Made by a program: the position numbers and the translations under genes
The notes under the pieces: model-generated
Database searches by the model: none
The model's input: the letters and a program-made list of their open reading frames with translations, nothing else
Told to the model about the DNA's origin: nothing
In this document: piece by piece, positions 11,527-38,783 of the stretch
Position numbering within the stretch: the stretch's first letter is position 1
Layout of the letters: every line of letters starts with the position of its first letter
DNA from: a bacterium
Lineage (GTDB): Bacteria > CALINM01
NCBI GenBank assembly: GCA_041640455.1
Contig: JBEQAF010000001.1
Span: forward strand, 1 to 62,020
DNA length: 62,020 nt
Direction: 5' to 3'

Positions 11527-12164
11527 TCGTTGATTTTAAAAATCTGATTATAAACTATGAGAGCGAATCTCTTCCAGAGATCAATCTAAAGGTTTTTGAG
11601 GGAGAGATAGTGGGGATTGAGTCTGGTAGAGACCTTTATGACCGAGCGCTTCTTGACTTCTTTTTATGTTTTTCCAATGATTTTCATGGTCAGGCAAGAT
11701 TATTTGATAGGGACATCAAAAACCTGACAGATGATGAGATTTTTTATATTCGTAAAAATATATCACCCTTAACACTAACTCTACCGTTAATATCAAATCT
11801 AAAGCTCATAGAAAATGTATATCTTCAGCAGTTTTTCTTCAGCAAAAAGAAGGAATCTGAGATATTTAAAGAGGCATATAAGCTTCTTGAATATCTGGGG
11901 ATTGAAAAAAGGTTTAACCTGAATCCCGCCTTTCTTACGGGCTTTGAAAAAAAGCTTGCCCTTTTTGCTCGGGCTCTGATTGGTGAATACAGGCTTTTTT
12001 ATCTTTCGAGGCTATTTAGTGATACGGATCAGGCAAAAAAAACCTTTCTTATTGAGAAAATCCTTGAGCAAAAGCGGATTAATGATAAAATTACTATTAT
12101 AGTAGTTGAAAGAAGTTTGGAAGACCTTGCACAGCTAAGCTTCAGCAAAATAATAAAGGTATAA
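11517..12164 (+). CDS. MlaF-like ABC nucleotide-binding-domain homologue with degenerate catalytic motifs (pseudo-ATPase)
   Basis: The length and order of ABC motifs are recognisable, but every catalytic motif is replaced. Walker A reads GIESGRDLYDR, the signature LTGFE, Walker B LFYLSRLF, and the H-loop position is R. Confidence 0.7.
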   Translation: MAVIVDFKNLIINYESESLPEINLKVFEGEIVGIESGRDLYDRALLDFFLCFSNDFHGQARLFDRDIKNLTDDEIFYIRKNISPLTLTLPLISNLKLIENVYLQQFFFSKKKESEIFKEAYKLLEYLGIEKRFNLNPAFLTGFEKKLALFARALIGEYRLFYLSRLFSDTDQAKKTFLIEKILEQKRINDKITIIVVERSLEDLAQLSFSKIIKV

Positions 12165-12165
12165 T

Positions 12166-18732: not shown

Positions 18733-18755
18733 ACTATCCTCCTTTCTATAAATTT

Positions 18756-19430
18756 TTAAATATGACATTTCTTGCAATAGGCGGCTTTTGTTCTATCAAG
18801 AAGTCTTTCCTTAATATTTTTCCAATCTTTGGGATGAGGATTTGCTCCGCCACTTTTATGACAGGGCACGCACACCCCTGCATCGGGATGACAGCTCTGG
18901 CAGGATTGAAGATTTCTTCTTGCCTCGAGGGCATGTTCCTGATTCCAGATATATGACTGGGAAGAGCCTGCAGGCTTATGAGATTTTATCCTTAAAGTTC
19001 CCTTATTGCCAATTTTTGTATGGCAGTCTTCACAAAATCTTGACTCATGACATCTATAACAGTTTTGTGGATTATCCATTGCCTTTATGGAATGAATAGA
19101 GATAAAGTCAGATCGATGGGACTTTGGCATATAATTACCTTTATAAGATATGCTCTTTTTCAGATCCTGTGTAATGCCCCCGCCTGTATGACAGTCAAGG
19201 CAGAATGACTGTCCATGACATTCTTTACAGTTGCTGTCAGCCTTTTCTGCCAGAAGTCGATGAGTTTTTAGAAAGTCTTCATCATGATTGGGCGGCACAT
19301 TTGAAGACAAATGACAATCGGCACACTCGTTAAGATTCATAGCTCTAAACTCTCTGTGGCTTGTTCTACCGTATAGAACTGAGGAGACCATAATAACCGA
19401 AAGGAGAACTGCAAAAACTATCTTTCTCAT
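18756..19430 (-). CDS. periplasmic octaheme c-type cytochrome (OmaB-like)
   Basis: 224 aa with a Sec signal peptide and 8 CxxCH motifs. Confidence 0.85.
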   Translation of the reverse strand: MRKIVFAVLLSVIMVSSVLYGRTSHREFRAMNLNECADCHLSSNVPPNHDEDFLKTHRLLAEKADSNCKECHGQSFCLDCHTGGGITQDLKKSISYKGNYMPKSHRSDFISIHSIKAMDNPQNCYRCHESRFCEDCHTKIGNKGTLRIKSHKPAGSSQSYIWNQEHALEARRNLQSCQSCHPDAGVCVPCHKSGGANPHPKDWKNIKERLLDRTKAAYCKKCHI

Positions 19431-19447
19431 CTTCTCCCCCCTTTCCT

Positions 19448-20644
19448 TTAAAATTTTACGTTAAGGGCTATAAACCCTTTGTAGTTATTTTTATAATCAT
19501 AGCTCACATTATCTTCAAACTTTGCAGCCAGGGAGATATTCTTTCTGATATCATAGGTAAACCCCGCCCAGTATCTTTTTGCTATATCTTCACGTTCTGC
19601 CCTTTTAAAATCATCATAATCTACTCCCCCTGATATGGCCATATTCTTTACTTTATACTCTCCGTCAAGTCTTATTCCGCCAACCTTTCCTGCGTAGCCG
19701 TTTCTTTTCTCGTAGCTGGCATTAACTGTGAGATTTTTTAACGGCATAGCTCTTAAGCCTATCTCATAAAGATCTGCCTCTGCATCTCCATCAAAATCCT
19801 CTCTGGCATATCCGATAGTAACCCCATAGTTTTTATTAATGGCGTACTGACCTTTTAAAGCATACTCCCTGTATTTGTCCACTGCAAATACACTATAAAC
19901 TGAAGTATAGTCAAAGGAGGGGAAGCTCTGATAATATTCGGCTTTTATCACAAGATCCTTAACAGGTGTTGACTTGAGCCCCAGTAGAAACTGGTTGGTG
20001 GATTTAAAGACATAATCATATTTTGTATCCAGATAGAAACTTAAATTCTTAGCTATGGGACCATCGGCAGAAAAACCGATTATCTCCTTTGAACGGTCAT
20101 TTCGGTCATATCTAACCGCATAGCTTAACTGAAGATAATAGTTTTTAAAATTTGAAAAGGCACTGGCTGACCATAAGTAAGAATCTTTCGCTCCAAGCTC
20201 GCTTCTTTCTGAGAACCTAACCTCTCTCCCCCCAAAAAATCTAAAACCCACAGGTCCCAGATTTGTTAAAGTAAGCGAGCCGCCATCAATAATTCCCGAA
20301 AGGGCATTAGAATAGGCATACTGTCTTCCAAGCCATATATGGGCTTTACCGTTAAGCAGGTCTTCGTAGCTTAAGTAAAGATAATAAAGCCGCGCATCCA
20401 GATCATCGCTTGAGCTGAGCTGTTTATTAAGTCTACCATAGGCATGAATGGATAGCTTATCGTCTTTAGTTAGCCTGGATACATCTACCTTAAGATACTC
20501 TGCAATATCTTTTTCGTTATCTCTTGTAATAAAATTATTATACCAGAGGTACTGAGTGGAACTCTTAAAATTTATCTCTGCTGAAAAAACAACGGTTGCG
20601 ATAAAAACAAAGCTCAGAGAGATTAAAAATCTTAGTTTAGCCAT
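19448..20644 (-). CDS. outer-membrane beta-barrel protein (OmbB-like porin of a porin-cytochrome complex)
   Basis: Signal peptide, alternating aromatic/polar beta-strand pattern, and a C-terminal ...ALNVKF. It is the first gene of the three-gene cytochrome cluster. Confidence 0.7.
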   Translation of the reverse strand: MAKLRFLISLSFVFIATVVFSAEINFKSSTQYLWYNNFITRDNEKDIAEYLKVDVSRLTKDDKLSIHAYGRLNKQLSSSDDLDARLYYLYLSYEDLLNGKAHIWLGRQYAYSNALSGIIDGGSLTLTNLGPVGFRFFGGREVRFSERSELGAKDSYLWSASAFSNFKNYYLQLSYAVRYDRNDRSKEIIGFSADGPIAKNLSFYLDTKYDYVFKSTNQFLLGLKSTPVKDLVIKAEYYQSFPSFDYTSVYSVFAVDKYREYALKGQYAINKNYGVTIGYAREDFDGDAEADLYEIGLRAMPLKNLTVNASYEKRNGYAGKVGGIRLDGEYKVKNMAISGGVDYDDFKRAEREDIAKRYWAGFTYDIRKNISLAAKFEDNVSYDYKNNYKGFIALNVKF

Positions 20645-20820: not shown

Positions 20821-23118
20821 CTAAAATCCAAGAGCGCACTGGCCAATACTAATGCAGGCGTCGTTTGGAGGGCTAAATCGGTTTATTAATGGTGTTAGTC
20901 CAAGCTCGTGGGATTTTTTGAAAAAATGATAGGTCAGATAGCTGTTCTGAAAGCTACCGCCAGAGAAGATTATTTTTTTGCAGCCCTTTTCCTTTGATAG
21001 CTTTTCCACTACTAACATAAAGGCATGTACAACTGTTGAATGAAATTTTATGGATATTACACTTCTGTCAGCATCACTTAGAAAATCTGAAAAAATATCA
21101 ATTAATATCTGATTTACATCAATCTCATAGGGGTTTGTTTCGTTAAAAGAGATGTCATAAGCGCCATACCAATCTTTTAGCTCAAATTTTTTGTATATGA
21201 GATTTTCCAGCTCCTGGGCGGGCTCACCTTCGTAACTCACCTTCTTTCTAAAGCCAAGAAGATAGGAAACACAGTCAAAAAGCCGACCAAGACTGGATGT
21301 TAAGACCTTTGATTGAGACACAGCTTTTGAAAAAGCACCAATATTGGCTCTACTTGGCTCTGAAAGCTGATTTAGCAGTCGTTCATCTTCAAATTTGGAG
21401 GAAAGAAGATAGCTCAAGAACATTTTTTCTGGATCTTTTATAGCACTATCACCAAAAGGAAAAGGCTTGTAGGAAAGCTTGCCAGCTCTATTAAAGCCTT
21501 CTTTTAAGCTTCCATAGAAGATCTCCCCGCCCCAGATCATGCCGTCCTCTCCGTATCCTGTGCCGTCCAAGGCAATTCCTACCACGGGCTCATCAAAAAT
21601 ATTGTTTTCCAGACAGACTGATGCGATATGGGCTTTGTGATGTTGAACCATTATGAGATCTTTATTAGCAGCTATCTCATGAGCATGACTGGTGCTTAGA
21701 AAATTAGGATGCAGATCACAGACATATAGATCTGGCTCAAACTCAAATATTTTTTTAAAGTCTTCAATGGTCTCCAGATAGGACTCATAGCTTTCGTAAT
21801 CTGCAAGGTCTCCTATGTACTGAGACTGAATGAGACTATCGTTTTTTAAAATACTTACGGTAGCCTTGAGGTCAGAGCCAAGCCCCATAATCTTTTTTGA
21901 AAAGCTTTTTGTTAGAAAAAGCGGTTTTGGTGCGTAGCCTCTGCTTTTTCGAAAAAGCAGTTCAATGGACTGTCTGTCAGGAAGGTCTATCTCTATCACT
22001 TTGACGACCGAGTCTTCCACATATCTTACAATCTCTCTGTTGTGGACCAAAAAGTAGTCTGCCAGGTCCTTTAGCCGTTCAATATCCATATCTTTATAAA
22101 CGATGGGCTCACCTGAGATATTAGCAGATGTGCAGATAAGAATCGGAATTTTTTCAAGCATAAGATAATGAAAGGGCGCATAGGGTAGCATTACTCCGTA
22201 GTATGGGCTACTACCTGCTATGGGATCAGGATCTGTGGCTATTATGTTTTTCTTTTTCTTTAGCAGTACAATGGGTTTTTCTTTGCTATTAAGTATTTGC
22301 TTCTCATGGTGGTTTATCTCCACATATTCTTTGAGAAGCTCCTCATCTCGAAAAAGCAGGGCAAAGGGCTTTCGGTCTCTCTTTTTTCTTTCTCTTAAGG
22401 TTAACACAGCTTCTAAATTTGTTGCATCCAGAATAAGATGATACCCGCCTACACCTTTTACAGCAATAATACTGCCTTTTTTTAAAAGCCCATTTACCTC
22501 GTCAAAGATGTTAGCTACCTTTATCTCCTTAAAATCTTTATTTAATAGTTTATACACAGGTCCACAGACTTCACAGGAGATGGGCTGGGCATGATACCTT
22601 CTTGATCTAATATTTTTATATTCAGCCTCACAGGCAGGACACATCTCAAAGACGCTCATGGTGGTATTTTTCCTGTCGTAGGGATGGTCTCTGATTATGG
22701 AAAAGCGAGGTCCACAGTTAGTGCAGTTAACAAAAGGATACTTATAAAACCTGCTTGAGGGTGAAAAGAAATCTTCCTTACAGTCTCTACATACTGCCAC
22801 GTCAGGAGAAAGATATATATTTGAGCTATCTCCTGAAAAAGAAGGGGCTATGCTAAAATCTTTAAAATCAAAAGAATCAATCTTTTGAATCTCAATCTGG
22901 TTTATAATAGCAAGGGGTGGTGGAGAGTTTTTCAGCTCTTCAAGATAGGAGCTGACAGCCCTTTTACTGCCTGTAACTACAATCTCCACTCCCTTTTTTG
23001 TGTTTCTTACGATGCCCTTAATATTATATTTTTCTGACAGGTTAAATAAGAAGGGTCTAAAACCAACCCCCTGAACAACACCCGAAACCTCTATCCTTAA
23101 ACTTTCTTTTTCTTCCAT
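20821..23118 (-). CDS. hypF: [NiFe]-hydrogenase maturation carbamoyltransferase HypF
   Basis: Acylphosphatase N-terminus (VSGVVQGVGFRPF), two CxxC..CxxC zinc fingers, and YrdC-like and Kae1-like domains. 765 aa. Confidence 0.95.
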   Translation of the reverse strand: MEEKESLRIEVSGVVQGVGFRPFLFNLSEKYNIKGIVRNTKKGVEIVVTGSKRAVSSYLEELKNSPPPLAIINQIEIQKIDSFDFKDFSIAPSFSGDSSNIYLSPDVAVCRDCKEDFFSPSSRFYKYPFVNCTNCGPRFSIIRDHPYDRKNTTMSVFEMCPACEAEYKNIRSRRYHAQPISCEVCGPVYKLLNKDFKEIKVANIFDEVNGLLKKGSIIAVKGVGGYHLILDATNLEAVLTLRERKKRDRKPFALLFRDEELLKEYVEINHHEKQILNSKEKPIVLLKKKKNIIATDPDPIAGSSPYYGVMLPYAPFHYLMLEKIPILICTSANISGEPIVYKDMDIERLKDLADYFLVHNREIVRYVEDSVVKVIEIDLPDRQSIELLFRKSRGYAPKPLFLTKSFSKKIMGLGSDLKATVSILKNDSLIQSQYIGDLADYESYESYLETIEDFKKIFEFEPDLYVCDLHPNFLSTSHAHEIAANKDLIMVQHHKAHIASVCLENNIFDEPVVGIALDGTGYGEDGMIWGGEIFYGSLKEGFNRAGKLSYKPFPFGDSAIKDPEKMFLSYLLSSKFEDERLLNQLSEPSRANIGAFSKAVSQSKVLTSSLGRLFDCVSYLLGFRKKVSYEGEPAQELENLIYKKFELKDWYGAYDISFNETNPYEIDVNQILIDIFSDFLSDADRSVISIKFHSTVVHAFMLVVEKLSKEKGCKKIIFSGGSFQNSYLTYHFFKKSHELGLTPLINRFSPPNDACISIGQCALGF

Positions 23119-23759
23119 CTAATTTTTTCTTCTAAGAATCTTACGAAGTCAAATAAAGTCTCTTCTTTTGTTGCCTGAATTTCAAATATTCTGACCTTAG
23201 GGTTTATGGAAAGAATGTCATTTTTTGCCTTTTCAAGTGAGAAGTTTGTATAGGGGATAAGATCAGTTTTGTTTATAAGCACGCAGTCTGCCTTAAAAAA
23301 TGTGCCAGGATATTTTTTTGGTTTATCATCTCCTTCTGTAACAGAGAGTATAACCAGCTTAAAATCCTCTCCCAGATAAAAATCACTGGGGCAGACAAGA
23401 TTACCCACATTTTCAATAATTAAAACGTCAAGCTTTGACAGGTCAAAAAATGAAAGCCCTTCTCTTATCATACCCGCATCGAGATGGCAGGCACCTTTCG
23501 TATTTAGCTGGACTGAAAGAACACCGGGCTTTGAAAGCCTTTCTGCGTCAACCGTATCTTCTATGTCGCCTACAATAACACCGATTCTGTAAAATCTTGA
23601 GAGATTTTTTATTAGATTTTCAAGAAAAGTGGTCTTTCCTGCACCGGGAGAGCTGATAAGATTAAATACCAGCACACCATGTTCATCAAACCTTTCTTTT
23701 AACTGCTTTGCAATCTCATCGTTACCCTTAAGAATAGGATAGACAACCTTAACCTTCAA
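23097..23759 (-). CDS. hypB: hydrogenase nickel-incorporation GTPase HypB
   Basis: SSPGAGKTT P-loop, ENVGNLVCP and NKTDL. Confidence 0.9.
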   Translation of the reverse strand: MKVKVVYPILKGNDEIAKQLKERFDEHGVLVFNLISSPGAGKTTFLENLIKNLSRFYRIGVIVGDIEDTVDAERLSKPGVLSVQLNTKGACHLDAGMIREGLSFFDLSKLDVLIIENVGNLVCPSDFYLGEDFKLVILSVTEGDDKPKKYPGTFFKADCVLINKTDLIPYTNFSLEKAKNDILSINPKVRIFEIQATKEETLFDFVRFLEEKIRWKKKKV

Positions 23760-24096
23760 CGCTCTCTCCTTCTATCTCTTTAATATTAAGCTCCATTCCT
23801 TCAGTTATATTCAGGGAGATATTTTTGCAAACAGGGCAGATGTAACTTAGATTAGTCAGTGTAATCTCTTTGTTACACTCAGAGCAAAAGGCGGTTATAT
23901 CTTTTTTAACAAATTCAAAAGATATATTTAGCCCCTCCTCCTTAATAATGCTACTTAAACAAAAGCTTAAGGCATCTATATTTACACCGCTACCCTCACC
24001 TACCTCGACAATAACCCGGCTGGCTTTTATTTTCTCTCTTTTTTCAATATCTTTTACGGCTTCAATAGTTGATAGGGCAACGGAGGCTTCATGCAT
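23749..24096 (-). CDS. hypA: hydrogenase nickel-insertion protein HypA
   Basis: MHE N-terminus and a CxxC...CxxC zinc site. 115 aa. Confidence 0.9.
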   Translation of the reverse strand: MHEASVALSTIEAVKDIEKREKIKASRVIVEVGEGSGVNIDALSFCLSSIIKEEGLNISFEFVKKDITAFCSECNKEITLTNLSYICPVCKNISLNITEGMELNIKEIEGESVEG

Positions 24097-24550
24097 TACT
24101 TAAACATTTTAATATTAAATCATTGACAATGGAAATGAATTTTTCTTTTCTATCCATGAGAGTTTTGGTGGGAGAGCCTATCTTATCAATACATTCAGGC
24201 ACTATAGCTACCACATGGCATCTGGCTTTGCTACCCATCATCTTTGCAAGCTTATAAACATCCTCAATGCCAATGTCATGAAAGGATGTAATCATTTTGT
24301 CCACATAGCTCACATCATCCATAGGGAATGAGTAGATAGAGCCAGGCTCATCATCAGCCCTTAACACATCGAGGAAAATTATATATTCATAATCAAAAAA
24401 AAGTGGAAGGAGCGTATGCCCTGATACGCTACCTTCCAGAAAGTCTATCTTTAACGAGGGAGAAGGTAGGCTTTTTAACTCTCTTACAATATGGATACCA
24501 AAACCTTCATCACTGAGAAGCTCGTTACCAAGCCCTACCACTGCTATCAT
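24089..24550 (-). CDS. [NiFe]-hydrogenase large-subunit C-terminal maturation endopeptidase (HyaD/HupD family)
   Basis: VVGLGNELLSDEGFG N-terminus, 153 aa, located in the hydrogenase operon. Confidence 0.85.
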   Translation of the reverse strand: MIAVVGLGNELLSDEGFGIHIVRELKSLPSPSLKIDFLEGSVSGHTLLPLFFDYEYIIFLDVLRADDEPGSIYSFPMDDVSYVDKMITSFHDIGIEDVYKLAKMMGSKARCHVVAIVPECIDKIGSPTKTLMDRKEKFISIVNDLILKCLSNA

Positions 24551-24553
24551 ATA

Positions 24554-25168
24554 TTAACTAACTTTTTTTGTCTCATAGCCTGTAATCATGGAAATGTAAT
24601 AATCCTTGACAGTTACACCAGTGCTACCCAGATAGATATGTGCCATCAGGGAAATTAGATAAAATATGGTCAGTATAAAATGCCAGAACCTCACGTATCC
24701 TAAACCGCTGAAAAAATCAACCACCACTCTGAATATCTCAGGCTCATAAAGGGCAAAGCCTGTTAAAAACTGGGGGATAAAAACCAGTGGCCAGATAGAA
24801 TATGCTATTTTTTGCCCAGGATTATATTTACCAAAATCAGGTTTGGGAGCCTTTGTAAAAATCCCCCAGAGATAATATTTTAAAAGCACAAAAAACTGAG
24901 GAATGTCAGATGGTCTTACAATAATATCAAAGGCTTTCCTTGTAACAAAAAAGTAATAATATGCCCTTGACACATAGCACCATACAATTAGCCATGCAAA
25001 TAAAAAATGTATGTATCTTGCCATAGAGATGGTGCCAAAAAGGTGAACATATCTTGGCATGGCAATCTGAAGCCCTGTAAGCACAAGCATGATCATAGAA
25101 AGAGCATGCACAGCATGGGTTATTCTAACATACAAAGGGTGTCTGTAATATCTTACATATTCAGCCAT
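24554..25168 (-). CDS. Ni/Fe-hydrogenase b-type cytochrome membrane subunit
   Basis: Four-helix membrane protein with conserved His residues (RITHAVHA...), directly downstream of the large subunit. Confidence 0.85.
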   Translation of the reverse strand: MAEYVRYYRHPLYVRITHAVHALSMIMLVLTGLQIAMPRYVHLFGTISMARYIHFLFAWLIVWCYVSRAYYYFFVTRKAFDIIVRPSDIPQFFVLLKYYLWGIFTKAPKPDFGKYNPGQKIAYSIWPLVFIPQFLTGFALYEPEIFRVVVDFFSGLGYVRFWHFILTIFYLISLMAHIYLGSTGVTVKDYYISMITGYETKKVS

Positions 25169-25176
25169 GTTACCCC

Positions 25177-26736
25177 CTATATAACCTTAAACTTTTTGAC
25201 CTGATTTGTCTCCGGATGAATTACATGGATTGCGCAGGCAAGACAGGGGTCAAAGGATCTTACAACTCTAACTATCTCAATGGGATTTTCTGGATCAGCT
25301 ATGGGTGTGCCGATTAAAGCCTGTTCAACAACGCCTTTCACACCTTTTTCATCAGCAGGACCGCAGTTCCATGTGGATGGGACCACACACTGATATCTTT
25401 CAATCTTGTGATTCTTAATCTTAATCCAGTGACCTAAGGCGCCTCTTTGAGCCTCAGTAAGCCCATATCCTTCGCTCTCTTTTGGCACTTCATATCTGTT
25501 TATTGTTGGTTTATCAGGATTGAGCTGGAGTAGCCATTCCTCTGTCTTATCGGCAATAATTTTTAGCTCTAAAGCCCTTGCAGCATGCCTTCCGAGCACC
25601 GAGAAAAGCACTGAAACATCAGCATTGAGAGATTTGAGGGTATTGTTAATAAGCGAGGATACCTCTGGTCTCTTTCCAGACAGATGGGTAACTGCCATTC
25701 TGGCAAGAGGTCCTACCTCCATAGCATGTCCGTCATATCTTGCTGCCTTTACCCATGTGTAGGCATTTGCCTTGTTCGGATCTGCCTGCGTCTCACCTTC
25801 ATAAGGATGCAGATTAGACTTTGAAGAGTACTTTGCGTAAAACACATCTTCTTTTATCTTTGCCTGATCAAGATTATCCAGCTTACCATTTACAAACGCG
25901 CCAGGAATGTGATAAAGCTCTGTCCCTTCGTTGTTAAGTTCAAAGATACCAAATGCCAGCAGATTTTTATGTCCGGCACCTATTTTAAAATACTGAGGGT
26001 ATGCCTTTGCAACGGCTAACACATCGGGAATATAACAGGTATCAATAAACTCCTTTATTCTTCTTAATCTGTAAAGATATGAGGCTATTCTTTCTGGATT
26101 AACCTGCTCAGCTGCGCCGCCGGGCACGATACCTGTAACATGGGGCATCTTTCCACCCCAGATAGCTATCATCTCCTGAGCTGTTCTTGCCATCTCAAAT
26201 GCCTTTACATAATGGGAGATGGCGGTAAGATTAAGCTCCTTATCTTTAATATAATCGCCCTTATATCTGGGCATAAAAGGAGCTGCGGCGGTTTTACTTC
26301 CTGAAGCGACCTCTCTTTTTACCCATTCCTTAATATTATTCATTGTTGGATCATTGCCTTTGTAATCCAGAATAGCAGTTATATCAACATAATCAAGAGC
26401 TGAAAGCTGATAAAAATGTAGTATGTGAGAGTGGAGCAGGTTTCCAGCTGCCATTAAATTTCTAATAATTCTTCCGTTGTCGGGAGGATTAACCTTAAAT
26501 GCTGCATCAAGGGTCTTTGCCGATGCCATAGCATGTCCAACCGGACAGACTCCGCATATTCTCTGGGTAACATTTATGGCATCCTGAGGATCTCTTTCCT
26601 GAAGAATAATTTCCCAGCCTCTAAACATATCACCCCTTGAACGGGCATCTTTAATCTTTCCACCTTCTATCTCAACTTCAATTGAGTAATGCCCCTCTAT
26701 TCTTGTTATAGGATCAACAACTATTTTTTTAGCCAT
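25177..26736 (-). CDS. [NiFe]-hydrogenase large subunit (membrane-bound uptake type)
   Basis: N-terminal RIEGH and RICGVCP. C-terminal DPCLACAIH followed by a 15-aa extension for protease cleavage. Confidence 0.95.
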   Translation of the reverse strand: MAKKIVVDPITRIEGHYSIEVEIEGGKIKDARSRGDMFRGWEIILQERDPQDAINVTQRICGVCPVGHAMASAKTLDAAFKVNPPDNGRIIRNLMAAGNLLHSHILHFYQLSALDYVDITAILDYKGNDPTMNNIKEWVKREVASGSKTAAAPFMPRYKGDYIKDKELNLTAISHYVKAFEMARTAQEMIAIWGGKMPHVTGIVPGGAAEQVNPERIASYLYRLRRIKEFIDTCYIPDVLAVAKAYPQYFKIGAGHKNLLAFGIFELNNEGTELYHIPGAFVNGKLDNLDQAKIKEDVFYAKYSSKSNLHPYEGETQADPNKANAYTWVKAARYDGHAMEVGPLARMAVTHLSGKRPEVSSLINNTLKSLNADVSVLFSVLGRHAARALELKIIADKTEEWLLQLNPDKPTINRYEVPKESEGYGLTEAQRGALGHWIKIKNHKIERYQCVVPSTWNCGPADEKGVKGVVEQALIGTPIADPENPIEIVRVVRSFDPCLACAIHVIHPETNQVKKFKVI

Positions 26737-27801
26737 TTATTTCTCCTCCTTTACTTTCTCAGTCTCTTCTTTCTTTTTTGAACTAAAAGCCCTTCCAAGA
26801 GCATGGGCTACAATACCACCTAAGGTTGCAGCGCCCACGATTGTTCCAAATTTGTCAGCCTTTACCTTAAGGCCGGGTATGCCAGGAACTTTTGCCTCAG
26901 GCAGTCTCATATATACACCATTCCCCTTTGAGCCGATAAAGCTCTCAGCTGCGCAGCCGATACAGGGAGAGCCACCCCTGATAGGCCAGTTAACGCCTGT
27001 ATTCCACTGATAGTTCGGGCAGTCTGCGTATGTAATTGGTCCCTTACATCCCAGCAGATACATACATTTTTTCTCACCAAAGGTTCTGGCAAAATCGCCT
27101 CTTTCAAAGAAAGGTCTCATCTCGCAATTGTCATGGATAAGTCTTCCAAAAAATACGAGAGGTCTTCTCTTTGAATCAAGCGCAGGAACTCCAAATAGCT
27201 TTAAATGAGCCAGGAGACCTACCAGATGATGGGGTCTTCCTGGACATCCTGGCAGATTAACAAGCTTTGATGTACCTATAACATCCATTACAGATTTTGC
27301 GCCGGTTGGGTTTGGTTCGCCTGCAGGTATACCGCCCCATGTGGCGCAGGTGCCGTAAGCAACCACATACTGGGCTTTTTCGCTAAGTCTTTTTGTCCAG
27401 TCAAGCATGGTAATGGGTTTTCCGTTCTCATCCTCACCAATTGTGCAGTACATACCATTATCCTTAACGGGAATAGCTCCCTCAATCACAAGAATAAACT
27501 TTTCATCAGATTTTAATACCTCATGAAGCACATTTATGCACTGATGACCCGATGCAGCCATCACAGTCTGATGAAACTTAAGGCTTATAATATCTGTAAC
27601 AATATCAGGAACAGTTGGCGCAACCGTATTAAGAAGAGACTCGGAACATCCCGCACAGTTTTGCCCCTGAATCCAGACAACAGGAATATTTTTTCCCTGT
27701 TTTTCAATGGCATGGGCTACCTTTGTAAGAAAGCTGTTTGACATGATAGCCGCACTGGCGCCACCAAGCACTTTAAGAAAATCTCGTCTTGAAAAATTCA
27801 T
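26737..27801 (-). CDS. [NiFe]-hydrogenase small subunit with Tat signal and C-terminal membrane anchor
   Basis: Twin-arginine signal MNFSRRDFLK, Fe-S cysteine patterns (CAGCSES...), and a hydrophobic C-terminal helix. Confidence 0.95.
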   Translation of the reverse strand: MNFSRRDFLKVLGGASAAIMSNSFLTKVAHAIEKQGKNIPVVWIQGQNCAGCSESLLNTVAPTVPDIVTDIISLKFHQTVMAASGHQCINVLHEVLKSDEKFILVIEGAIPVKDNGMYCTIGEDENGKPITMLDWTKRLSEKAQYVVAYGTCATWGGIPAGEPNPTGAKSVMDVIGTSKLVNLPGCPGRPHHLVGLLAHLKLFGVPALDSKRRPLVFFGRLIHDNCEMRPFFERGDFARTFGEKKCMYLLGCKGPITYADCPNYQWNTGVNWPIRGGSPCIGCAAESFIGSKGNGVYMRLPEAKVPGIPGLKVKADKFGTIVGAATLGGIVAHALGRAFSSKKKEETEKVKEEK

Positions 27802-27853: not shown

Positions 27854-27869
27854 ATCAACAAAAATGCCA
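27854..27869 (-). promoter_or_regulatory. weak sigma54-like -24/-12 candidate upstream of the [NiFe]-hydrogenase operon
   Basis: The minus strand reads TGGCAT-TTTTG-TTGAT. The -24 element is good. The -12 element reads TTGA instead of TTGC. It ends about 52 nt upstream of the ATG. Confidence 0.3.
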
Positions 27870-28007: not shown

Positions 28008-28027
28008 GTGTAATCTATAGATTACAC
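28008..28027. promoter_or_regulatory. perfect 20-bp palindrome GTGTAAT-CTATAG-ATTACAC (candidate operator/UAS)
   Basis: Read directly from the sequence. It lies between the dut stop and the hydrogenase operon. The same 7-bp arms and 6-bp spacing recur at 38053-38072. Confidence 0.5.
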
Positions 28028-28050
28028 TGTTATGAGAAAATTACATTTTA

Positions 28051-32292: not shown

Positions 32293-34548
32293 CTAAAGCA
32301 TTATATCTTCTCTTTTAATATTGTATTTTTTCATCAGATTGTGAAAGGTTGGTCTGGGAATACCTGCCAGCTCCGCCGCCTTTTTTACATTGCCCAGTGT
32401 CTGTTTGAGATATTTTTTTATCAGATTTTTTTCAAAAAAGGTGAGCTGCTCATCTCTCTGCTCCCAGAGATTTTTATTTGTCACAAGCACATCGATGGTG
32501 GGAGATATATTCTGAATATGGATTGGAAAATCCTTTAGTTTAAGCTCCTCTCCCTGTGAGAGTATAATGGCTCTCTCCACCACATTTGCCAGCTCTCTTA
32601 TATTTCCAGGCCAGTTGTAGGCTTTGAGGTATTTAATTATCTCCTTTTCGTAGGAGCTTATTTTTTTGCCGATCTTTTTTGAGTTGACCTCAATGAGATG
32701 GTGCAAAAAGTATGGGATATCATCCTTCCTCTCTCTTAAAGGTGGCAGATGAATGCTGAATACGTTAAGTCTATAGTAAAGGTCTTCTCTGAACTTCCCT
32801 TCATCAATAAGCTGTTCAAGATTTCTGTTGGTAGCTGCAATAACCCTAACATCAATCTTTTTTACCTCATTACTGCCGAGAGGTCTTATCTCCCCATTCT
32901 GTAAAACTCTCAGAAGCTTGGTCTGAAGATTGAGCGGCATATCACCTATCTCATCCAGAAAGATAGTGCCGTTATGAGCCACCTCCAGTAACCCCTTTTT
33001 ATTCTCCACTGCTCCCGTAAAAGCGCCCTTCACATGACCAAAAAGCTCGCTTTCAAGAAGATGCTCTGTTAATGTGGTGCAGTTTACGGTAATCATAGGT
33101 CTGTCTTTTCTCGTCGATTTCTGATGCAAAAGGGTGGCAACCATCTCCTTACCTGTTCCGCTTTCGCCTCTGATAAGTACTGTGGTATTGGTAGGAGCCA
33201 CTTTTTCCAGCTGTTCCCAGATCTCCCGCATCCGCTGGGTCTTCCCCAGAATAAAATTAAAATCCTTATCTTTGTATAGCTCCTTCTGAATTATCTTATA
33301 ATCATTTAGCAGATTAATATTGCTTACCGATATCTTGTTTAGTAAATAGGGGAGACACATCTCTATCTCTGCAAGCCCCATTATGACTGCCTTTGCCTTC
33401 TCATAGCAGTTGTCATATCCGCAGGCACCGCAGTTAAGATTTTCACCGCCATTGTAGGTTTTCATCTCATCAAGAATATTTTTTATCTCCTCTTCCTTTG
33501 GCTCCACAAATAATAACCTGTCTTTTTTAAAAATCTTTTTTTTCAGCCCTGACTGAGGCATTATCTTTTCCTCATACTCTCCCTGAAAGTAATAATCTTT
33601 AATGTATCTTCTGACCCTCTCAGCTCTTTCATAAATGGTTCCTTTATCCTTCATGATGGGTCCGTCTATACAGCCTTTACAGAAAAGTATGTCCACAAAT
33701 TTAGGAGACACATCGCCCTGTCTGAGTGAGTGAAGAAAGCTCATTACCTCATCTTTACCATCTATAACAAGTATATCGCTGTCAAGGATGTCTGTGCCTA
33801 TTGCGGCAGTTCTGATAAGCCCACCAGACAGGGAAAAAGACCTACCGATTCTTGGAAAATAGCCATCAAAATCGGAAAAGCTCTTTCTTTTTGGATTTAT
33901 ATCTCTTTTTTGAAACTCCTCATCCACCTCTTTGAAAGTATAGACCGAGTCAATAGCGCCTTTGTCATCTTTTATTTCACTTTTTTTTGCCACACAGGGA
34001 CCAATAAAAAACACCATGGAGTTATCTATCTTCTCTTTTATGAGCCTGCCCATAGCTATCATAGGAGATACAATGGGAACAAGATTTTCAATCAGTTCGG
34101 GATAAAATTTTGAGATAAGGTTTACAATAGCAGGGCAGGGAGAAGAGATATAGGTCTTTTTCTCAATGGTCTTTGCCTTAAGGATAAACTCCCTGTAACT
34201 ATCAATTATTATCTCCGCACCATATGCAACCTCATAGACATAGTTAAAACCCAGCTTTCTTAAGGCAGAAACTATCTGCAGCGGATGGCAGTCTTTGTAA
34301 TAGGACACAAAAGACGGGGCAAGAAGCGCCACAAGATTTTTATTTTTTCTAATTGCCAGATCAATAGAGAGCCCCCTCTCCACATCTTTGGCGTCCTGAG
34401 AGCAGAGCTTTATGCAGTTTCCACATACAATGCAGTTTTCCTGGATCACATAAGCCTGGTCGTTCTGAACCTTAATAGCCTTAACTGGACAGCCTCTAAT
34501 GCAGGAGTAGCATTTTTTGCACAGCCCCTCTTTAGTCTGAACAATCAT
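32293..34548 (-). CDS. sigma54-dependent transcriptional activator with an N-terminal 2x[4Fe-4S] ferredoxin, an [FeFe]-hydrogenase-like H-domain and an extra Cys4 FeS module
   Basis: [12 protein letters not shown] and [12 protein letters not shown] are followed by hydrogenase large-subunit-like motifs [14 protein letters not shown] and FCKGCIDGP, then [12 protein letters not shown]+ motifs are GESGTGKE and GAFTGA, with a C-terminal Fis-type HTH. There is no receiver domain. Confidence 0.85.
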
Positions 34549-35786
34549 ATAGCCACCTCAAAAGGAGATACTGACCTTTCAAGCAGATTAAAATAGCCCG
34601 ATATGAAAACCCCGTAGTTTATTATTGGGATACCCAGCTTTTTAAACTTTTCCATCCTTGCAAGCATATCTCTTCTTGTTAGCATACAGCCGCCACAATG
34701 AAAAACTGCCTTTATATCATCCTGCTCGGAAAAAAGAGGCACTATGCCAGAAAATAGTTTAAATTTTAGCTTCTTGCCTGTCTTTTTAGAGATCATATCT
34801 GGTAGTATATCTCTTGCCATATCGCCTTCCAGTCTGTGATGGGTGCAGGCTTCCACGATAGCCACCGTATCACCATCTTTAAGATTAGTAAGCCCATTGA
34901 AGCCGTCAATGAAACTTTTTAGATCACCTTTATGGTTTGCAAAAAGTATGGAAAAGGAGGTTATAGGGGTATTGTCAGGCAGCTTCCCTAAAATATCTTT
35001 AAACACCTGCGCATCAGCAATAATTAGATCGGGCGGATTTTTAAGATTTTTTAACGTATCTTCAAGCTCATCAGGCTGAACAACTATAAGTTTTACATGC
35101 TTTTCCAGCGCATCTCTCATCACCTGCACCTGAAGCGGTTTTAGACGCCCCTTTGGATAGGCTTTGTTTACCGGCACCACAAGAAGAAGGGTATCTCCCT
35201 GCTTAACAATATTATCCAGAATTCCTTTATCCTCATACTCTGCAAGGCTTTCTCCGATAAACCTTTTAATCTCATCAATTCCTTTATTTTCTAAGGCAGA
35301 GCAAGGAAAGGATAAGATCTTCTTTCCGCTTAGCTCGTAATAAAAACTGTCACATCTTTTACTAAAAAAATTTAGTATTGTTGCTTCCAGATCTATTTTG
35401 TTGAAGATAAAGGCATAGGGGATATTTTTCTTTTCAAGATAGCTCATATAGCTTAACTCTTTATGAGACAGAGAAAAATTTTCATAGGGAGGTTGAAATA
35501 CAAAAAACACGAGATCTGAACGAGCCAGTATCTCTTCGGTAACCTTAATCCTTTCTTCAGCAAGCGTAGAGCTATCATCAATACCTGGCGTATCGGTAAG
35601 AAGCACAGGTCCCGCAGGTAGAATCTCCATTGCCTTTTCTGTGCGGTCTGTGGTGGTGCCTGCAATGGGTGAAACAATGGATACCTTCTGATTGGTAAGA
35701 GAGTTGATAATACTGGACTTACCCGCATTGGTTCTCCCCACAAAGGCAACCCTCTTTCTTAAAGATTTTGGCGTATCCTCAAACAT
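34545..35786 (-). CDS. hydF: [FeFe]-hydrogenase H-cluster maturation GTPase HydF
   Basis: [10 protein letters not shown]-loop and C-terminal CTHH...HCGGC cluster ligands. The start is moved to ATG 35786 (MFEDTP...), which has GGAGG upstream and overlaps the hydE stop (ATGTTTGA). Confidence 0.9.
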
Positions 35787-36777
35787 AAAGCCTCCTTCTG
35801 TAACCATATGAATCGCTTATCCTGAACCCCTGCTCTGGCAGGATCTTTTTTACAAAATCAATCGAAACAGGTCTTTTGCCATCATATATGGAATATTTTT
35901 TTCTTTTCAACTCGGGCGTAAAGTTTGGCATAATCACATTACATCCAGAGTTTAAAGCATTAATCAGGGCTGAAAGATCACCGAGTGTGTACAGGGCTGT
36001 GGTAGCTGGTATATTTACATCCTGCAAAACTACCCTTGCAAGGGCAACCATGTTTATAACCAGATCAATATGAGGAGCACTGTAGCCAGAAAGAGGCGTT
36101 CCACCAGATGGAATAAACGGTCCCATTCCTGCCATATCACAGTCAAGCTCTTTCATCAGAAAGATATCGTTAATATAATCTTCGAGATCAGTAAAAGGCA
36201 GCCCGATAATATTTCCAAGTCCAACCTCATAGCCTATCTTTTTTAACTGATCATAAATTTTTAATCGGTCTGATAATTTTTCACCAGGATGAAGCCTTTC
36301 ATATACCTTCTCGTTTGATGTCTCATGTTTGATTAAAAATCTTTTTGCCCCCGCATCAAAAAAGGCTTTATAATCATCAGGCGCTCTCTCTCCTATACAG
36401 AGCGTTATGGTAAGATGGGTCTCTTTTTTAATCTCTTTTATAATCTCGCAGAGGTAGTCTCTTGTGTATAAAAGATCTTCTCCTGACTGCAGAACCACTG
36501 TCTTAATACCGCTCTTTTCAATAATCTTTGCTTTATAAACAATCTCATCCTTAAAAAGCCTGTATCTTTCAATGGGGCTTGATTTTCTTATACCGCAATA
36601 AAGGCAGTTTTTTCTGCAGTAGTTGGAAAACTCAATGATACCTCGCAAAAAAATCTCATCGCCGTAGACCTTTTTCCTGATCTTTCCTGCTTCAAGCTTA
36701 AGCATCTCTGGATTTTTTAAAAGCTCTTTAGCGTCACATTTTTTAAACATAGAGATCGCTTCTTCCCGAAAAGACAT
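35779..36777 (-). CDS. hydE: [FeFe]-hydrogenase maturation radical-SAM protein HydE
   Basis: BioB-like radical SAM protein with CRKNCLYCG. It lies between hydG and hydF. The start could be ATG 36777 or ATG 36750. Confidence 0.9.
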   Translation of the reverse strand: MSFREEAISMFKKCDAKELLKNPEMLKLEAGKIRKKVYGDEIFLRGIIEFSNYCRKNCLYCGIRKSSPIERYRLFKDEIVYKAKIIEKSGIKTVVLQSGEDLLYTRDYLCEIIKEIKKETHLTITLCIGERAPDDYKAFFDAGAKRFLIKHETSNEKVYERLHPGEKLSDRLKIYDQLKKIGYEVGLGNIIGLPFTDLEDYINDIFLMKELDCDMAGMGPFIPSGGTPLSGYSAPHIDLVINMVALARVVLQDVNIPATTALYTLGDLSALINALNSGCNVIMPNFTPELKRKKYSIYDGKRPVSIDFVKKILPEQGFRISDSYGYRRRLYV

Positions 36778-38029
36778 GATCTATCTTTTTTTTAAACCCC
36801 TCTTTTAACCCCAGCTCTGACGCTTTTTCATAAATAAAAGCCATCAGCTCCTTAGCCCTGTAAGGGGGGAAAAAATCTCTTACATACTCGGTAAGGCTAA
36901 GCAGGGCATTTATATTACAGTAGTTTTTAATCTTTCCTGTTTCAGCAAGCTCCATAAAGTCTTCTCCAACTCTTCCCTTCCTGTAGCAGGCTGTACAGAA
37001 GCTGGGGATAAGATCTTCACTAATTAGCTTTTCCACCACCTCTTTAAGAGTTCTCTCATCGGAGATGGAGAACTGGTCTGACCTTTCCTTGCAGCTGTAG
37101 CCACCGGGCGATGTGGCAGAGCCAGCGCTGATCTGTGAGACACCGAGCTTAAATAGCCTGTCTCTAAGCTCCTCAGGCTCTCTGGTAGAAAGAATAATCC
37201 CCGTATAAGGCACGGCTATTCTAAGCACCGCTATGATATAGGCAAAATAATCATCGCTTATATGATGAACAGGAAAATTAAAGCTTAACCCCTCTACCTC
37301 TTTTAATCGTGGCACAGAGATGGTATGGGGACCCACATTAAAATTTTTTTTAAGCTCTTCAACATGTTTCAAAAGACCATAAATATCTTCAGCAGGATCA
37401 CTGAGACCAAAAAGCACCCCCATGCCGATATCCTTTATGCCTGCCTCCATTGCCCTCATGGGCGCATAATATCTGTAATCAAAATCTGACTTGGGACCTT
37501 CTGGATGAAAAAAGCTGTAGAGATTTCTGTTATAGGTCTCCTGAAATAGCTGGTATGTGCCTATATTTGCACCTTTAAGCCTTTTAAATCCATCAAGATC
37601 AAGCGGGGCGATATTTATGTTAATCCTTCTTATGGAGCCTTTTGTGTCATGTATGGAATACACAAATTTTATAGCCTCCAGGATATAATCCAGATCACTG
37701 GACTCACCGGATACCAGAAGGACTCTTTTAACCCCCTGATTTAAAAGAAATCTTACCTCTTTCTCAAGCTCGGCTCTGTCAAGGCGCTTTCTCGTGATGA
37801 GACGGTTTTTTTTGTTAAATCCGCAATAGCGGCAGCTATTCTGACAGAAATTTGATACATAAAGGGGAGAAAAAAGGACAATCCTTTTTCCGTAAATCCT
37901 TTCCTTAATCTTTGAGGCAAGAGAAAGCACCTCTTTCCGTGTAATCTCATCTTTACACAAAAGTAGCTCATAAGCCTCTTCTGGACTTAGACCTTTAAGT
38001 TTTTCCGCTTTTGAAAGCAATTTTTGCAT
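36743..38029 (-). CDS. hydG: [FeFe]-hydrogenase maturation radical-SAM tyrosine lyase HydG
   Basis: ThiH-like with CQNSCRYCG plus the HydG-specific C-terminal CTAC-x22-C motif. Confidence 0.9.
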   Translation of the reverse strand: MQKLLSKAEKLKGLSPEEAYELLLCKDEITRKEVLSLASKIKERIYGKRIVLFSPLYVSNFCQNSCRYCGFNKKNRLITRKRLDRAELEKEVRFLLNQGVKRVLLVSGESSDLDYILEAIKFVYSIHDTKGSIRRININIAPLDLDGFKRLKGANIGTYQLFQETYNRNLYSFFHPEGPKSDFDYRYYAPMRAMEAGIKDIGMGVLFGLSDPAEDIYGLLKHVEELKKNFNVGPHTISVPRLKEVEGLSFNFPVHHISDDYFAYIIAVLRIAVPYTGIILSTREPEELRDRLFKLGVSQISAGSATSPGGYSCKERSDQFSISDERTLKEVVEKLISEDLIPSFCTACYRKGRVGEDFMELAETGKIKNYCNINALLSLTEYVRDFFPPYRAKELMAFIYEKASELGLKEGFKKKIDHVFSGRSDLYV

Positions 38030-38052: not shown

Positions 38053-38072
38053 GTGTAATTTTAATATTACAC
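38053..38072. promoter_or_regulatory. palindrome GTGTAAT-TTTAAT-ATTACAC, 24 nt upstream of the hydG ATG
   Basis: Read directly from the sequence. The arms and spacing are identical to the palindrome at 28008-28027. Confidence 0.5.
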
Positions 38073-38151: not shown

Positions 38152-38192
38152 AAAAAAATTTCGGGAAGGGGCTTTATATAACCCGCTTCCCG
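38152..38192 (-). terminator. intrinsic-terminator-like hairpin plus U7 in the hydG upstream region
   Basis: Minus-strand RNA reads CGGGAAGCGGG-UUAUAUAAAG-CCCCUUCCCG (10 bp, one bulge), followed by AAA and UUUUUUU. It could terminate the HMA gene or attenuate hydG transcription. Confidence 0.5.
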
Positions 38193-38226
38193 TGTAGTAG
38201 GGAGGGAAAGTATGTACTCTTTTAAT

Positions 38227-38242
38227 AGCAATCACCATGCCA
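38227..38242 (-). promoter_or_regulatory. sigma54 -24/-12 promoter candidate upstream of hydGEF-regulator
   Basis: The minus strand reads TGGCAT-GGTGA-TTGCT, matching TGGCAC-N5-TTGCW at every key position (GG-N10-GC). It lies about 200 nt upstream of the hydG ATG. Confidence 0.55.
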
Positions 38243-38372: not shown

Positions 38373-38657
38373 TTATTTTATCTCATAGGGATCGTAGCCA
38401 ATTTTTTTTAAGGCATCTATAATCTCTTTAGCCGATATCTTGTTTTCGTCGAACTGGACAGTCACTGTCTCATAGTCCAGATTGAGCTCATACTTATTTA
38501 TACCCTTTAACTTTCTTAAAGACTGCTCCACATTAAATGAACACATTTTACAGTTTAGCTCGGGGACTTTTAATTTTAATGTTTTTTTCTCATTCTGAGC
38601 GAGAGACAGCCCTGTGAGTGTAACAAAAATCATCAGAGATAACAAAATTTTTTTCAT
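38373..38657 (-). CDS. secreted heavy-metal-associated (HMA) domain protein, MerP/CopZ-like
   Basis: Signal peptide followed by LKVPELNCKMCSFNVE (CxxC metal site) in a ferredoxin-like fold pattern. ATG 38657 is preferred because GAAGGGG lies upstream. Confidence 0.6.
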   Translation of the reverse strand: MKKILLSLMIFVTLTGLSLAQNEKKTLKLKVPELNCKMCSFNVEQSLRKLKGINKYELNLDYETVTVQFDENKISAKEIIDALKKIGYDPYEIK

Positions 38658-38729: not shown

Positions 38730-38758
38730 AAAAAAACCCCGAGCTAAAAAGCTCGGGG
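38730..38758 (-). terminator. rho-independent terminator after the porin gene
   Basis: Minus-strand CCCCGAGC-TTTTTA-GCTCGGGG followed by T7. Confidence 0.8.
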
Positions 38759-38783
38759 TTTAAAGGACTTTTACAAATTAGAT

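Follow-up and report, generated by a model that had tools for sequence, protein, structure and literature searches.

A predicted sensory [FeFe]-hydrogenase fused to a sigma-54 activator is encoded with H-cluster maturases and linked to a [NiFe] uptake hydrogenase operon

Whether the [FeFe] hydrogenases of groups C and D sense H2, and how their signal is relayed, is an open question that is addressed by a locus on contig JBEQAF010000001.1 of the bacterial assembly GCA_041640455.1. To our knowledge, TmHydS and TamHydS are the only sensory enzymes of these groups that have been characterized. The stretch analyzed here (positions 1 to 62,020 of the contig, 62,020 nucleotides, termed the window) encodes at 32293..34548 a 751-residue protein, hereafter the regulator, in which a hydrogenase-like domain is joined to a sigma-54-dependent transcription activator. 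Its gene forms an operon with those of the three H-cluster maturases. We propose, with a probability of roughly 60%, that the regulator is a one-component H2 sensor and transcription activator of a membrane-bound [NiFe] uptake hydrogenase operon, and that it is matured by the co-operonic HydG, HydE and HydF. The window genes and domains given below with coordinates, from the cytochrome and porin genes (16549..20644) to the gene at 38373..38657, lie on the minus strand.

The regulator gene was delimited with the open reading frame (ORF) list and with Pfam and NCBIfam sigma-54 activator models. The N-terminal ferredoxin-like domain (34390..34530, residues 7-53; Pfam Fer4_10 and Fer4_7) contains two CxxCxxCxxxC(P) motifs, as expected for 2x[4Fe-4S], whose cysteines (C10/13/16/20 and C39/42/45/49) are invariant or nearly so in the homologue alignment. 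It is followed by an H-domain with the [FeFe]-hydrogenase large-subunit fold (33658..34341, residues 70-297; PF02906 Fe_hyd_lg_C, E = 2e-46), which scored 159.1 bits against a cut-off of 22.1 and is thus placed in the H-domain superfamily. A C-terminal cluster motif, Cx2Cx4Cx16C, comes next (33355..33432, residues 373-398: C373, C376, C381 and C398) and is covered by the Pfam FeS domain PF04060 (residues 370-400, E = 1.7e-9). Right behind the last cluster cysteine, C398, a long linker helix was predicted by DSSP on AlphaFold2 (AF2) models (33271..33354, residues 399-426), and it runs into the output half of the protein.

That half consists of a sigma-54 interaction AAA+ domain (32749..33252, residues 433-600; PF00158, E = 8e-73, 244 bits), an AAA lid (residues 605-682; Pfam E = 1e-23) and a Fis-type helix-turn-helix (HTH) domain, HTH_8 (32323..32445, residues 702-742; PF02954, E = 4.9e-9). 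A motif search located Walker A (GESGTGKE, residue 461), the GAFTGA loop (residue 508) and Walker B (IFLDE, residue 529) in the AAA+ domain, and by these motifs, together with the HTH, the regulator is a bona fide sigma-54 enhancer-binding protein (EBP). The NCBIfam models for NorR and NifA gave high scores over the AAA+ and HTH domains, which stayed below the equivalog cut-offs. No Pfam match to a PAS domain was obtained behind the C-terminal cluster of the regulator, where the helix and then Sigma54_activat were found instead.

An earlier note on this DNA had pointed out, by eye, three altered [FeFe]-hydrogenase motifs and an additional CGACGYDNC...C module within 33355..34548, a segment that corresponds to residues 1-398 (the first 398 codons) of the 751-codon ORF; each of the quoted strings was located at the residues given for it. 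In the L1 variant, SSPCPAI (34126..34146, residues 135-141), the cluster ligand C138 is retained and Pro137 occupies the position of the proton-relay Cys (C299 of the CpI hydrogenase). The L2 variant, GPCVAKKSE (33976..34002, residues 183-191), has Gly183 in place of M353 and retains C185, K188 and E191. In L3, DILFCKGC (33670..33693, residues 286-293), Leu288 replaces M497 and the two cysteines are spaced as C290-x2-C293, so that both methionines framing the 2Fe site are substituted. The canonical group A motifs TSCCPxW, MPCxxKxxE and ExMxCxxxC were not found in the regulator. The additional module corresponds exactly to Cx2Cx4Cx16C, and the RnfB/CODH-type label proposed for it holds at the level of Pfam ('FeS' domain PF04060).

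A search of 5.8 billion proteins (E <= 1e-10) returned more than 7,700 relatives. Fusion partners of their sensor module (Fer4, H-domain, FeS) include sigma-54 AAA+ domains, HisKA/HATPase_c histidine kinases and GGDEF domains; in the nearest relatives outside the orthologue group (42-47% identity) the partner of the same module is HisKA/HATPase_c. Conservation of the motifs was judged in the best 120 of these relatives. Essentially invariant there were (S/T)(T/S)PCPA, FIGPCxAKKxE, DxLFCxGCxxGP and NCGxCGYxxC...MC, and the residues C138, C185, C290, C293, K188 and E191 were present in 120/120.

The register of L1, L2 and L3 was confirmed independently by HMMER alignment with solved hydrogenases and by MAFFT alignment of 86 sensors with 42 catalytic HydA that are encoded beside many of them and that served as an internal reference for the active-site residues. 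C138, C185, C290 and C293 align with C300, C355, C499 and C503 of CpI, with the C499-C503 spacing shorter by one residue. Against HDCR HydA2 (7qv7_D), HMMER paired L3 of the window protein with FVEVMTCPEGCISG and opened a gap of one residue between the pair of L3 cysteines, and MAFFT paired it with E(V/I)M(A/T)CPGGC in the catalytic HydA and left the identical gap. Because both alignments place the gap between the same two cysteines, the CxxC spacing is a real deletion. The spacing occurs in 80/86 sensors, as compared with CPGGC in 42/42 catalytic neighbors, whose motifs read TSC(C/S)PGW, MPCTAKKFE and EVMxCPGGC. In the neighbor-joining tree the CxxC sequences are near-monophyletic, lying within one clade of 84 tips, and eight sensors of about 580 residues with GPC and CxxxC, the size and type expected of TmHydS-like proteins, form a separate clade. 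The earlier note was right that the spacing departs from the classic motif; it is clade-wide and not peculiar to the window protein. The motif changes as a whole are hallmarks of a family of thousands and not oddities of a single sequence.

Two further sets of residues distinguish the sensors from their catalytic neighbors or unite the two. The position of CpI C299 in the CxxC clade is occupied by P (27), T (15), A (12), S (12), D (8), N (5) or Y (1) and never by Cys. The remaining proton-pathway positions (E279, S319, E282 and R286) are conserved in 41/42 catalytic neighbors and unconserved across the 86 sensors; in the window protein the pathway C299-E279-S319-E282-R286 reads P137, S117, V157, E120 and K124, unlike that of catalytic group A. 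An assignment by eye of the E279 equivalent to the invariant Tyr118 was discarded, since a one-residue gap relative to the 42 HydA puts E279 at S117. The residues contacting the 2Fe subcluster are retained in the sensors: A77-P78-S79 in 84-85 of 86, S161-P162 in 85/86, F/Y238 in 83/86 and G243 in 86/86, with C185 and K188 (the K358 equivalent) present in essentially all 86 except the divergent L032 and L059. Conservation of G242 is partial (57/86, with Arg in 25).

This combination, an unconserved proton pathway with the Gly, Pro and Leu variants and Cx2Cx4Cx16C known from sensory enzymes, supports the suggestion of the earlier note that the site is shaped for sensing rather than turnover. Its statement that loss of the relay Cys and changes at the methionines are features of sensory hydrogenases is matched by the published data: C299, M353 and M497 are replaced in TmHydS by Ala, Gly and Ser, respectively, and TamHydS carries Ser at M353 and Leu at M497 (PMC8163306, PMC10055695). 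Both of these proteins carry N- and C-terminal clusters (Cx2Cx4Cx16C), have lost C299, and contain a functional H-cluster with low turnover (PMC8163306, PMC10055695). Among the sequences of HydDB group C, about 10% have Pro at C299 and about 51% have Gly at M353 (PMC10055695). Thus, the L1 and L2 changes are already known hallmarks of the sensory group.

The layout that defines sensory groups C/D, with an N-terminal 2x[4Fe-4S] domain and a C-terminal Cx2Cx4Cx16C around the H-domain (PMC8163306, PMC13104023), is present in the regulator, as are the loss of the relay Cys and a small residue at M353 (Pro137 and Gly183); the PAS domain of group C (M2f) is absent. By sequence, the regulator matches the putative sensory [FeFe] hydrogenases of groups C/D, PAS domain excepted, and does not match catalytic group A. 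Its probable place in HydDB is group C1, 'histidine kinase-linked (putative)', from which it differs in that its output is a sigma-54 EBP in a one-component arrangement. In a genomic survey, motifs P1-P3 could 'hardly' be found in C1 sequences (PMC11406978), which fits the PCP, GPC and CxxC variants of the regulator family. C1 sequences have been reported in Hydrogenedentota (PMC11406978), and members of the sensor family were also detected in that group here (L031 and L044).

Structure prediction gave agreement at the level of the fold. An AF2 model of residues 1-433, built from a 63-sequence alignment, had a pLDDT of 87.9 and a pTM of 0.85, with pLDDT values of 88-96 over the three motif regions. 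All top Foldseek matches in the PDB were solved [FeFe] hydrogenases (CbA5H, HydABC HydA, DdHydAB, HDCR HydA2 and CpI; probability 1.00, TM-score 0.60-0.67), so that the H-domain model agrees with genuine [FeFe] hydrogenases only. The full-length model had a pTM of 0.51, with the linker helix at residues 399-424 and low confidence for the linker (including a low pLDDT for the linker helix in the monomer), and provided no usable view of the contact between the sensor and the AAA+ domain.

The genes directly upstream of the regulator encode the machinery that an H-cluster would need. HydG, a radical-SAM maturase for the CO/CN ligands (36743..38029; TIGR03955, 478.5 bits, cut-off 312.2), HydE, a second radical-SAM maturase (35779..36777; TIGR03956, 294.3 bits, cut-off 254.6), and HydF, the scaffold GTPase (34545..35807; Pfam HydF_dimer and HydF_tetramer; TIGR03918, 420.9 bits, cut-off 325.6), each scored above the NCBIfam equivalog cut-off. 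All four genes overlap in the order hydG-hydE-hydF-regulator, by 35 bp between hydG and hydE, by 29 bp between hydE and hydF, and through the ATGA shared by the hydF stop codon and the regulator start codon. No second H-domain was found in the 62 kb window by tblastn with catalytic HydA queries and Pfam scans of the other large ORFs.

About 4.5 kb downstream of the regulator, on the same strand, lies the operon of a membrane-bound [NiFe] uptake hydrogenase that we propose as the target (24089..27801; Pfam; NF033181, 703.6 bits, cut-off 600). It encodes a small subunit with the Tat signal SRRDFLK (26737..27801), a large subunit with the motifs RICGVCPVGH and DPCLACAIH (25177..26736), cytochrome b (24554..25168) and a maturation protease (24089..24550). 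The [NiFe] maturation genes hypA (23749..24096), hypB (23097..23759) and hypF (20821..23118) follow (20821..24096; Pfam and the hypA ORF). No rpoN was found among the window ORFs scanned.

Conservation of this arrangement was examined in 80 loci drawn from a collection of species-representative genomes and in other loci of the family, a set that also supplied the 86 sensors aligned above; the relatives listed from the genome-contig scan were all at most 46% identical to the window protein. In four loci whose sensors are 69-71% identical to that of the window (L002, L086, L087 and L088), the regulator is directly followed by the [NiFe] small subunit, large subunit, cytochrome b and protease genes. 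The order hydG-hydE-hydF-regulator was kept in L002-L005, L086 and L087, that is, in every close orthologue with the upstream flank covered (L088 is truncated within hydF and L001 just upstream of the regulator). The metagenome-assembled genomes (MAGs) of the orthologues are labeled 'Proteobacteria/Pseudomonadota bacterium'. At 40% identity, the Firmicute Peptococcaceae bacterium CEB3 (L036) has hydF-hydG-regulator followed by the same four [NiFe] genes. Additionally, a Clostridia MAG (L006, 46%) carries hydGEF, a sensor-histidine kinase and a separate NtrC-type response regulator, that is, a two-component version of the system. Over the wider family, hydG was present within 10 kb in about 29% of 85 loci.

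Candidate regulatory DNA was found at both the [NiFe] operon and hydG. A window-wide scan for the palindrome GTGTAAT-N6-ATTACAC, allowing up to 2 mismatches, gave 6 matches as compared with 0.16 expected, among them two perfect copies, both intergenic: one at 28008..28027, upstream of the [NiFe] small-subunit gene, and one at 38053..38072, upstream of hydG. In front of the [NiFe] genes the palindromes are arranged in tandem, as TGTAATTTTCTCATAACA and TGTAATCTATAGATTACA, 19 bp apart (28009..28045), and are candidate upstream activator sites; the pair recurs with equal spacing in L002, L086, L087 and L088. A sigma-54-like -24/-12 element, TGGCATTTTTGTTGAT (27854..27869, minus strand), ends 52 bp before the small-subunit ATG, and in four orthologous loci TGGCA(C/T)-N5-TTG(T/A)T ends 41-42 bp before it. 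The five close loci thus share tandem palindromes followed by a sigma-54-type element while their flanks diverge. In L036, the canonical TGGTATGCTTTTTGCA and a different palindrome, TGTCTAA-N3-TTAGACA, were found upstream of the [NiFe] genes.

At hydG, the canonical -24/-12 element TGGCAT-N5-TTGCT, here TGGCATGGTGATTGCT (38227..38242, minus strand), lies upstream of the gene and is conserved in L002, L086, L087 and L003. The perfect palindrome is located 24 bp upstream of the hydG ATG, with a counterpart at the same place in orthologous loci, and falls between the sigma-54 element and the ATG in every close locus examined. Exact matches to TGGCAY-N5-TTGCW numbered 2 in the window versus 0.18 expected. 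A loose sigma-54 pattern with up to 2 mismatches was not enriched (36 matches versus 26 expected in the window), and for this reason only exact matches and comparative conservation carry weight. As patterns, and at that level only, -24/-12 promoters with upstream palindromes are present at the proposed target genes, as would be expected for an EBP.

The remaining palindrome copies fall in coding regions, in hydG (37939..37958 and 37644..37663), hypA (23859..23878) and a porin gene (20524..20543), and were not counted as sites, as they may reflect chance or coding constraint. The copies at 37939..37958 and 23859..23878 have one mismatch; the former is located some 70 bp inside hydG, with counterparts in L002, L086 and L003 and none in L087. 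The other exact sigma-54 consensus of the window, TGGCATTCAGATTGCT (10526..10541, plus strand), lies within the 5' end of a divergent GAF-MshEN-T2SSE ATPase gene; an mlaE/mlaD-like operon (10738..13161) follows about 200 bp downstream of it.

The mechanism that we propose from these observations would begin with the maturases. HydG, HydE and HydF would build the 2Fe subcluster, and HydF would hand it to the regulator, in which C138, C185, C290 and C293 are expected to ligate the [4Fe-4S] part of the H-cluster. The input module (residues 1-398) would then act as a non-catalytic sensory [FeFe]-hydrogenase. Because the proton relay is gone and the 2Fe-site methionines are replaced, H2 would be bound and split slowly and would cause a redox change at the clusters instead of sustained turnover. 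This change may reach the AAA+ domain by way of the C-terminal cluster and of the helix behind C398, and there it would lift an intramolecular inhibition of oligomerization and ATPase activity, as in other negatively controlled one-component EBPs. With the HTH bound to the tandem TGTAAT-N6-ATTACA sites, the activated hexamer would act on the TGGCAT-N5-TTGAT promoter of the [NiFe] operon by remodeling sigma-54 RNA polymerase there, so that the uptake hydrogenase would be produced when H2 is present. Control would thus be by activation rather than repression, and the palindrome just upstream of the hydG start may additionally serve autoregulation.

Several observations weigh against this proposal and lend themselves to other explanations. 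One of these is that a true H-cluster reports not H2 but CO, O2 or, via the N-terminal clusters, the redox state of the ferredoxin pool, with the regulator tuning anaerobic energy metabolism. H-clusters bind CO and react with O2, and the CO and O2 reactivity of TamHydS is unusual (PMC8163306). In L003-L005 (about 70% identity), where hydGEF-regulator is kept, the neighbor is a selenocysteine formate dehydrogenase and no [NiFe] hydrogenase occurs within 10 kb. Sigma-54-fused sensors at 43-47% identity (L089, L091 and L090, including Moorella) stand beside HydABC-type [FeFe] hydrogenases or NAD-linked formate dehydrogenase, which means that targets differ between lineages. Nevertheless, the most consistent linked target in the clade is an H2-uptake hydrogenase (five loci in two lineages), and an H-cluster with three maturases would be a costly redox sensor when the resident [4Fe-4S] clusters would suffice. 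We thus regard a signal other than H2 as unlikely. [quoted passage not shown]

A second explanation, which we consider about equally improbable, is that the [NiFe] link is mere neighborhood, and that the regulator acts on its own hydGEF, on a small RNA upstream of hydG or on unlinked genes while another factor binds the palindromes. The best sigma-54 promoter of the region is indeed the one upstream of hydG and not that of the [NiFe] genes, whose -12 element lacks the canonical GC (TTGAT in the window, TTGAT or TTGTT across loci). Within the window, four housekeeping genes (rpsO, pnp, dut and one for an M16 peptidase) intervene between the regulator and the [NiFe] operon, and the absence of an adjacent [NiFe] operon in L003-L005 points the same way. 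Additionally, the hydG palindromes lie downstream of the sigma-54 element and thus not in the classical enhancer position. These points have to be set against the recurrence of the adjacency in four close loci and a distant Firmicute, the maintained position and spacing of promoter and tandem palindromes in five close loci whose flanks diverge, the use of the same palindrome at hydG and at the [NiFe] operon, and the finding that the cluster has no further conserved gene for a DNA-binding protein.

The least probable explanation, raised in the earlier note, is that the H-domain is Nar1/NARF-like, with [4Fe-4S] clusters only and a role as an Fe-S, oxygen or redox switch in which the L3 and Met changes reflect loss of the 2Fe site; it could draw on the departure of all three classic motifs from consensus, on the CxxC spacing, for which there is no counterpart among characterized [FeFe] hydrogenases, on the scarcity of P1-P3 in group C1 (PMC11406978) and on CxxC-clade members with a lost L3 Cys or with GCS for APS (L081, L075, L032 and L059), but it is disfavored by hydG, hydE and hydF, which are translationally coupled to and conserved with the regulator in a window without another H-domain, by the 2Fe contacts APS, SP, K188 and G243, conserved in 84-86 of 86 sensors, and by the functional H-clusters that TmHydS and TamHydS bind despite comparable substitutions (PMC8163306, PMC10055695). 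The regulator accordingly differs from the Nar1/NARF/CIAO3-like pattern of missing maturases and unconserved 2Fe contacts. We know of no Nar1-type protein with either maturases or conserved 2Fe-contacting residues.

With an H2-sensing activator of the [NiFe] operon as the preferred reading, the regulator can be compared with known systems. TmHydS shares with it the N-terminal 2x[4Fe-4S] domain, the H-domain, the C-terminal Cx2Cx4Cx16C, the lost relay Cys, Gly at M353, and the retained cluster-ligand cysteines and 2Fe-contacting residues. The two proteins differ in that TmHydS has a C-terminal PAS domain and depends on separate signaling partners, whereas the regulator is fused to the sigma-54 AAA+ and HTH domains; in having Ala and Ser rather than Pro and Leu at C299 and M497; and in clade, as HydS-like sequences (about 580 residues, GPC and CxxxC) group apart from the CxxC clade of the window protein. 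TamHydS resembles the regulator in its three-cluster layout without PAS, in Leu at M497, in the lack of a proton pathway and in being encoded beside hydrogenase genes (PMC8163306), and differs from it by Ser at M353 and by the lack of a fused output domain.

In function, the closest analogues would be the HoxBC-HoxJ-HoxA cascade of Cupriavidus necator and the HupUV-HupT-HupR cascade of Rhodobacter capsulatus, in which a low-activity hydrogenase serves as H2 sensor and signals to an NtrC-family activator of a membrane-bound [NiFe] uptake hydrogenase. Those cascades use [NiFe] sensors (group 2b) with a separate histidine kinase and response regulator, three or four proteins in all, whereas the regulator would compress the cascade into one polypeptide, with an [FeFe]-type sensor fused to the activator and its own HydGEF; the sensor parts are unrelated in sequence. 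As with NorR, which detects NO at non-heme iron in a GAF domain, and NifA, an N-terminal cofactor sensor precedes a sigma-54 AAA+ domain and a Fis-type HTH. The sensor itself is unrelated: in place of a GAF domain, the regulator has a hydrogenase fold, which would carry as many as four Fe-S clusters and a 2Fe subcluster.

A sigma-54-fused [FeFe] sensor architecture has been listed once, among the EBP domain types of Clostridiales (Fig. 2 of PMC6615313), with no further analysis. In the literature searched, mostly outside subscription journals, neither a description of the hydGEF-regulator operon with its conserved [NiFe] link, or of any [FeFe] sensor in control of a [NiFe] hydrogenase, nor a discussion of the L3 CxxC deletion was found. 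These three features thus appear to be new, and the sensory-type motif changes were already known. The interest of the locus lies mainly in making the H2-sensor hypothesis directly testable, since sensor, ATPase motor and DNA-binding domain reside in one protein, the maturases are in the operon, and a candidate promoter and operator are present at a plausible target. If the proposal is correct, the locus would be a case of cross-talk between the two hydrogenase classes, with [FeFe] on the sensing side and [NiFe] on the uptake side.

The clade-wide CxxC deletion is also a natural variant for studying how cubane ligation tunes the H-cluster, and a CxxC-ligated cubane, if formed, would be a ligation unseen in any studied hydrogenase. 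A more far-reaching version of the proposal, for which we would give slightly less than even odds, is that HydG, HydE and HydF exist in this lineage only to arm a transcription factor, a single-polypeptide H2 receptor with a CxxC-ligated cubane that switches on a [NiFe] uptake hydrogenase. One hydrogenase class would then serve purely as a sensor for the other, and the regulator would be the first among sensory [FeFe] hydrogenases to have a defined and easily assayed output, namely transcription from a known sigma-54 promoter. In practical terms, a regulator of this kind would amount to a compact genetic biosensor for H2.

Some observations on the sensors and their neighbors were made in the course of the comparison. 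The sigma-54-fused relatives L032 (2427..4769) and L059 (9908..12238) lie inside the CxxC clade, in which they represent reversion or divergence, and have CNGGC/CNGAC at L3, SSC/SAC at L2 and GCS for APS; by these residues the 2Fe site may have been lost. About 30 of the 42 catalytic-type HydA neighbors have TSCSPGW at L1, with Ser at the cluster-ligand position C300, the preceding Cys retained, and canonical L2 and L3. Examples directly upstream of sensor-kinase genes in loci L008-L085 are found in L044 (8217..9965) and L063 (8147..9910), and from their sequences these HydA look like a distinct subtype, with sensor kinases of the CxxC type as regular partners. The formate dehydrogenase cluster of L003 (12335..17616), also present in L004 and L005, is convergent with the regulator; its catalytic subunit is split into two ORFs (186 and 812 residues), as expected for an in-frame selenocysteine UGA, and genes for FdhE, NrfD and a 4Fe-4S subunit were also identified there.

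The hydG leader (38152..38242) combines the promoter TGGCATGGTGATTGCT, a CU-rich single-stranded stretch, CATACTTTCCCTCCC, that is anti-Shine-Dalgarno-like, and a stable hairpin with a U-run (38152..38214). Counterparts were found in L002 (6353..6440), L086, L087 and L003 (from 6323); there, sequence conservation covers the promoter and the CU stretch, and the hairpin, whose sequence varies between loci, is kept only as a structure (folds of -15 to -20 kcal/mol, z from -2.8 to -6.2). Rfam returned no family for this leader at the gathering threshold or at E <= 1. Its features would be compatible with a sigma-54-dependent small RNA or leader, which we regard as possible; the predicted transcript (38152..38226) would measure roughly 60 nt. 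Just upstream of the hydG control region, a gene at 38373..38657 encodes a small secreted protein of 94 residues with a heavy-metal-associated-type CxxC motif (NCKMCS), and a strong terminator-like hairpin at about 38735..38760 precedes it.

At the other end of the locus, directly downstream of hypF, genes at 16549..20644 encode an MtrC/MtrF-like multiheme cytochrome (742 residues), a c7-type cytochrome (224 residues) and a porin-like protein (398 residues), which from sequence looks like an outer-membrane electron conduit. A set of this kind hints that extracellular electron transfer may be supplied by the oxidation of H2.

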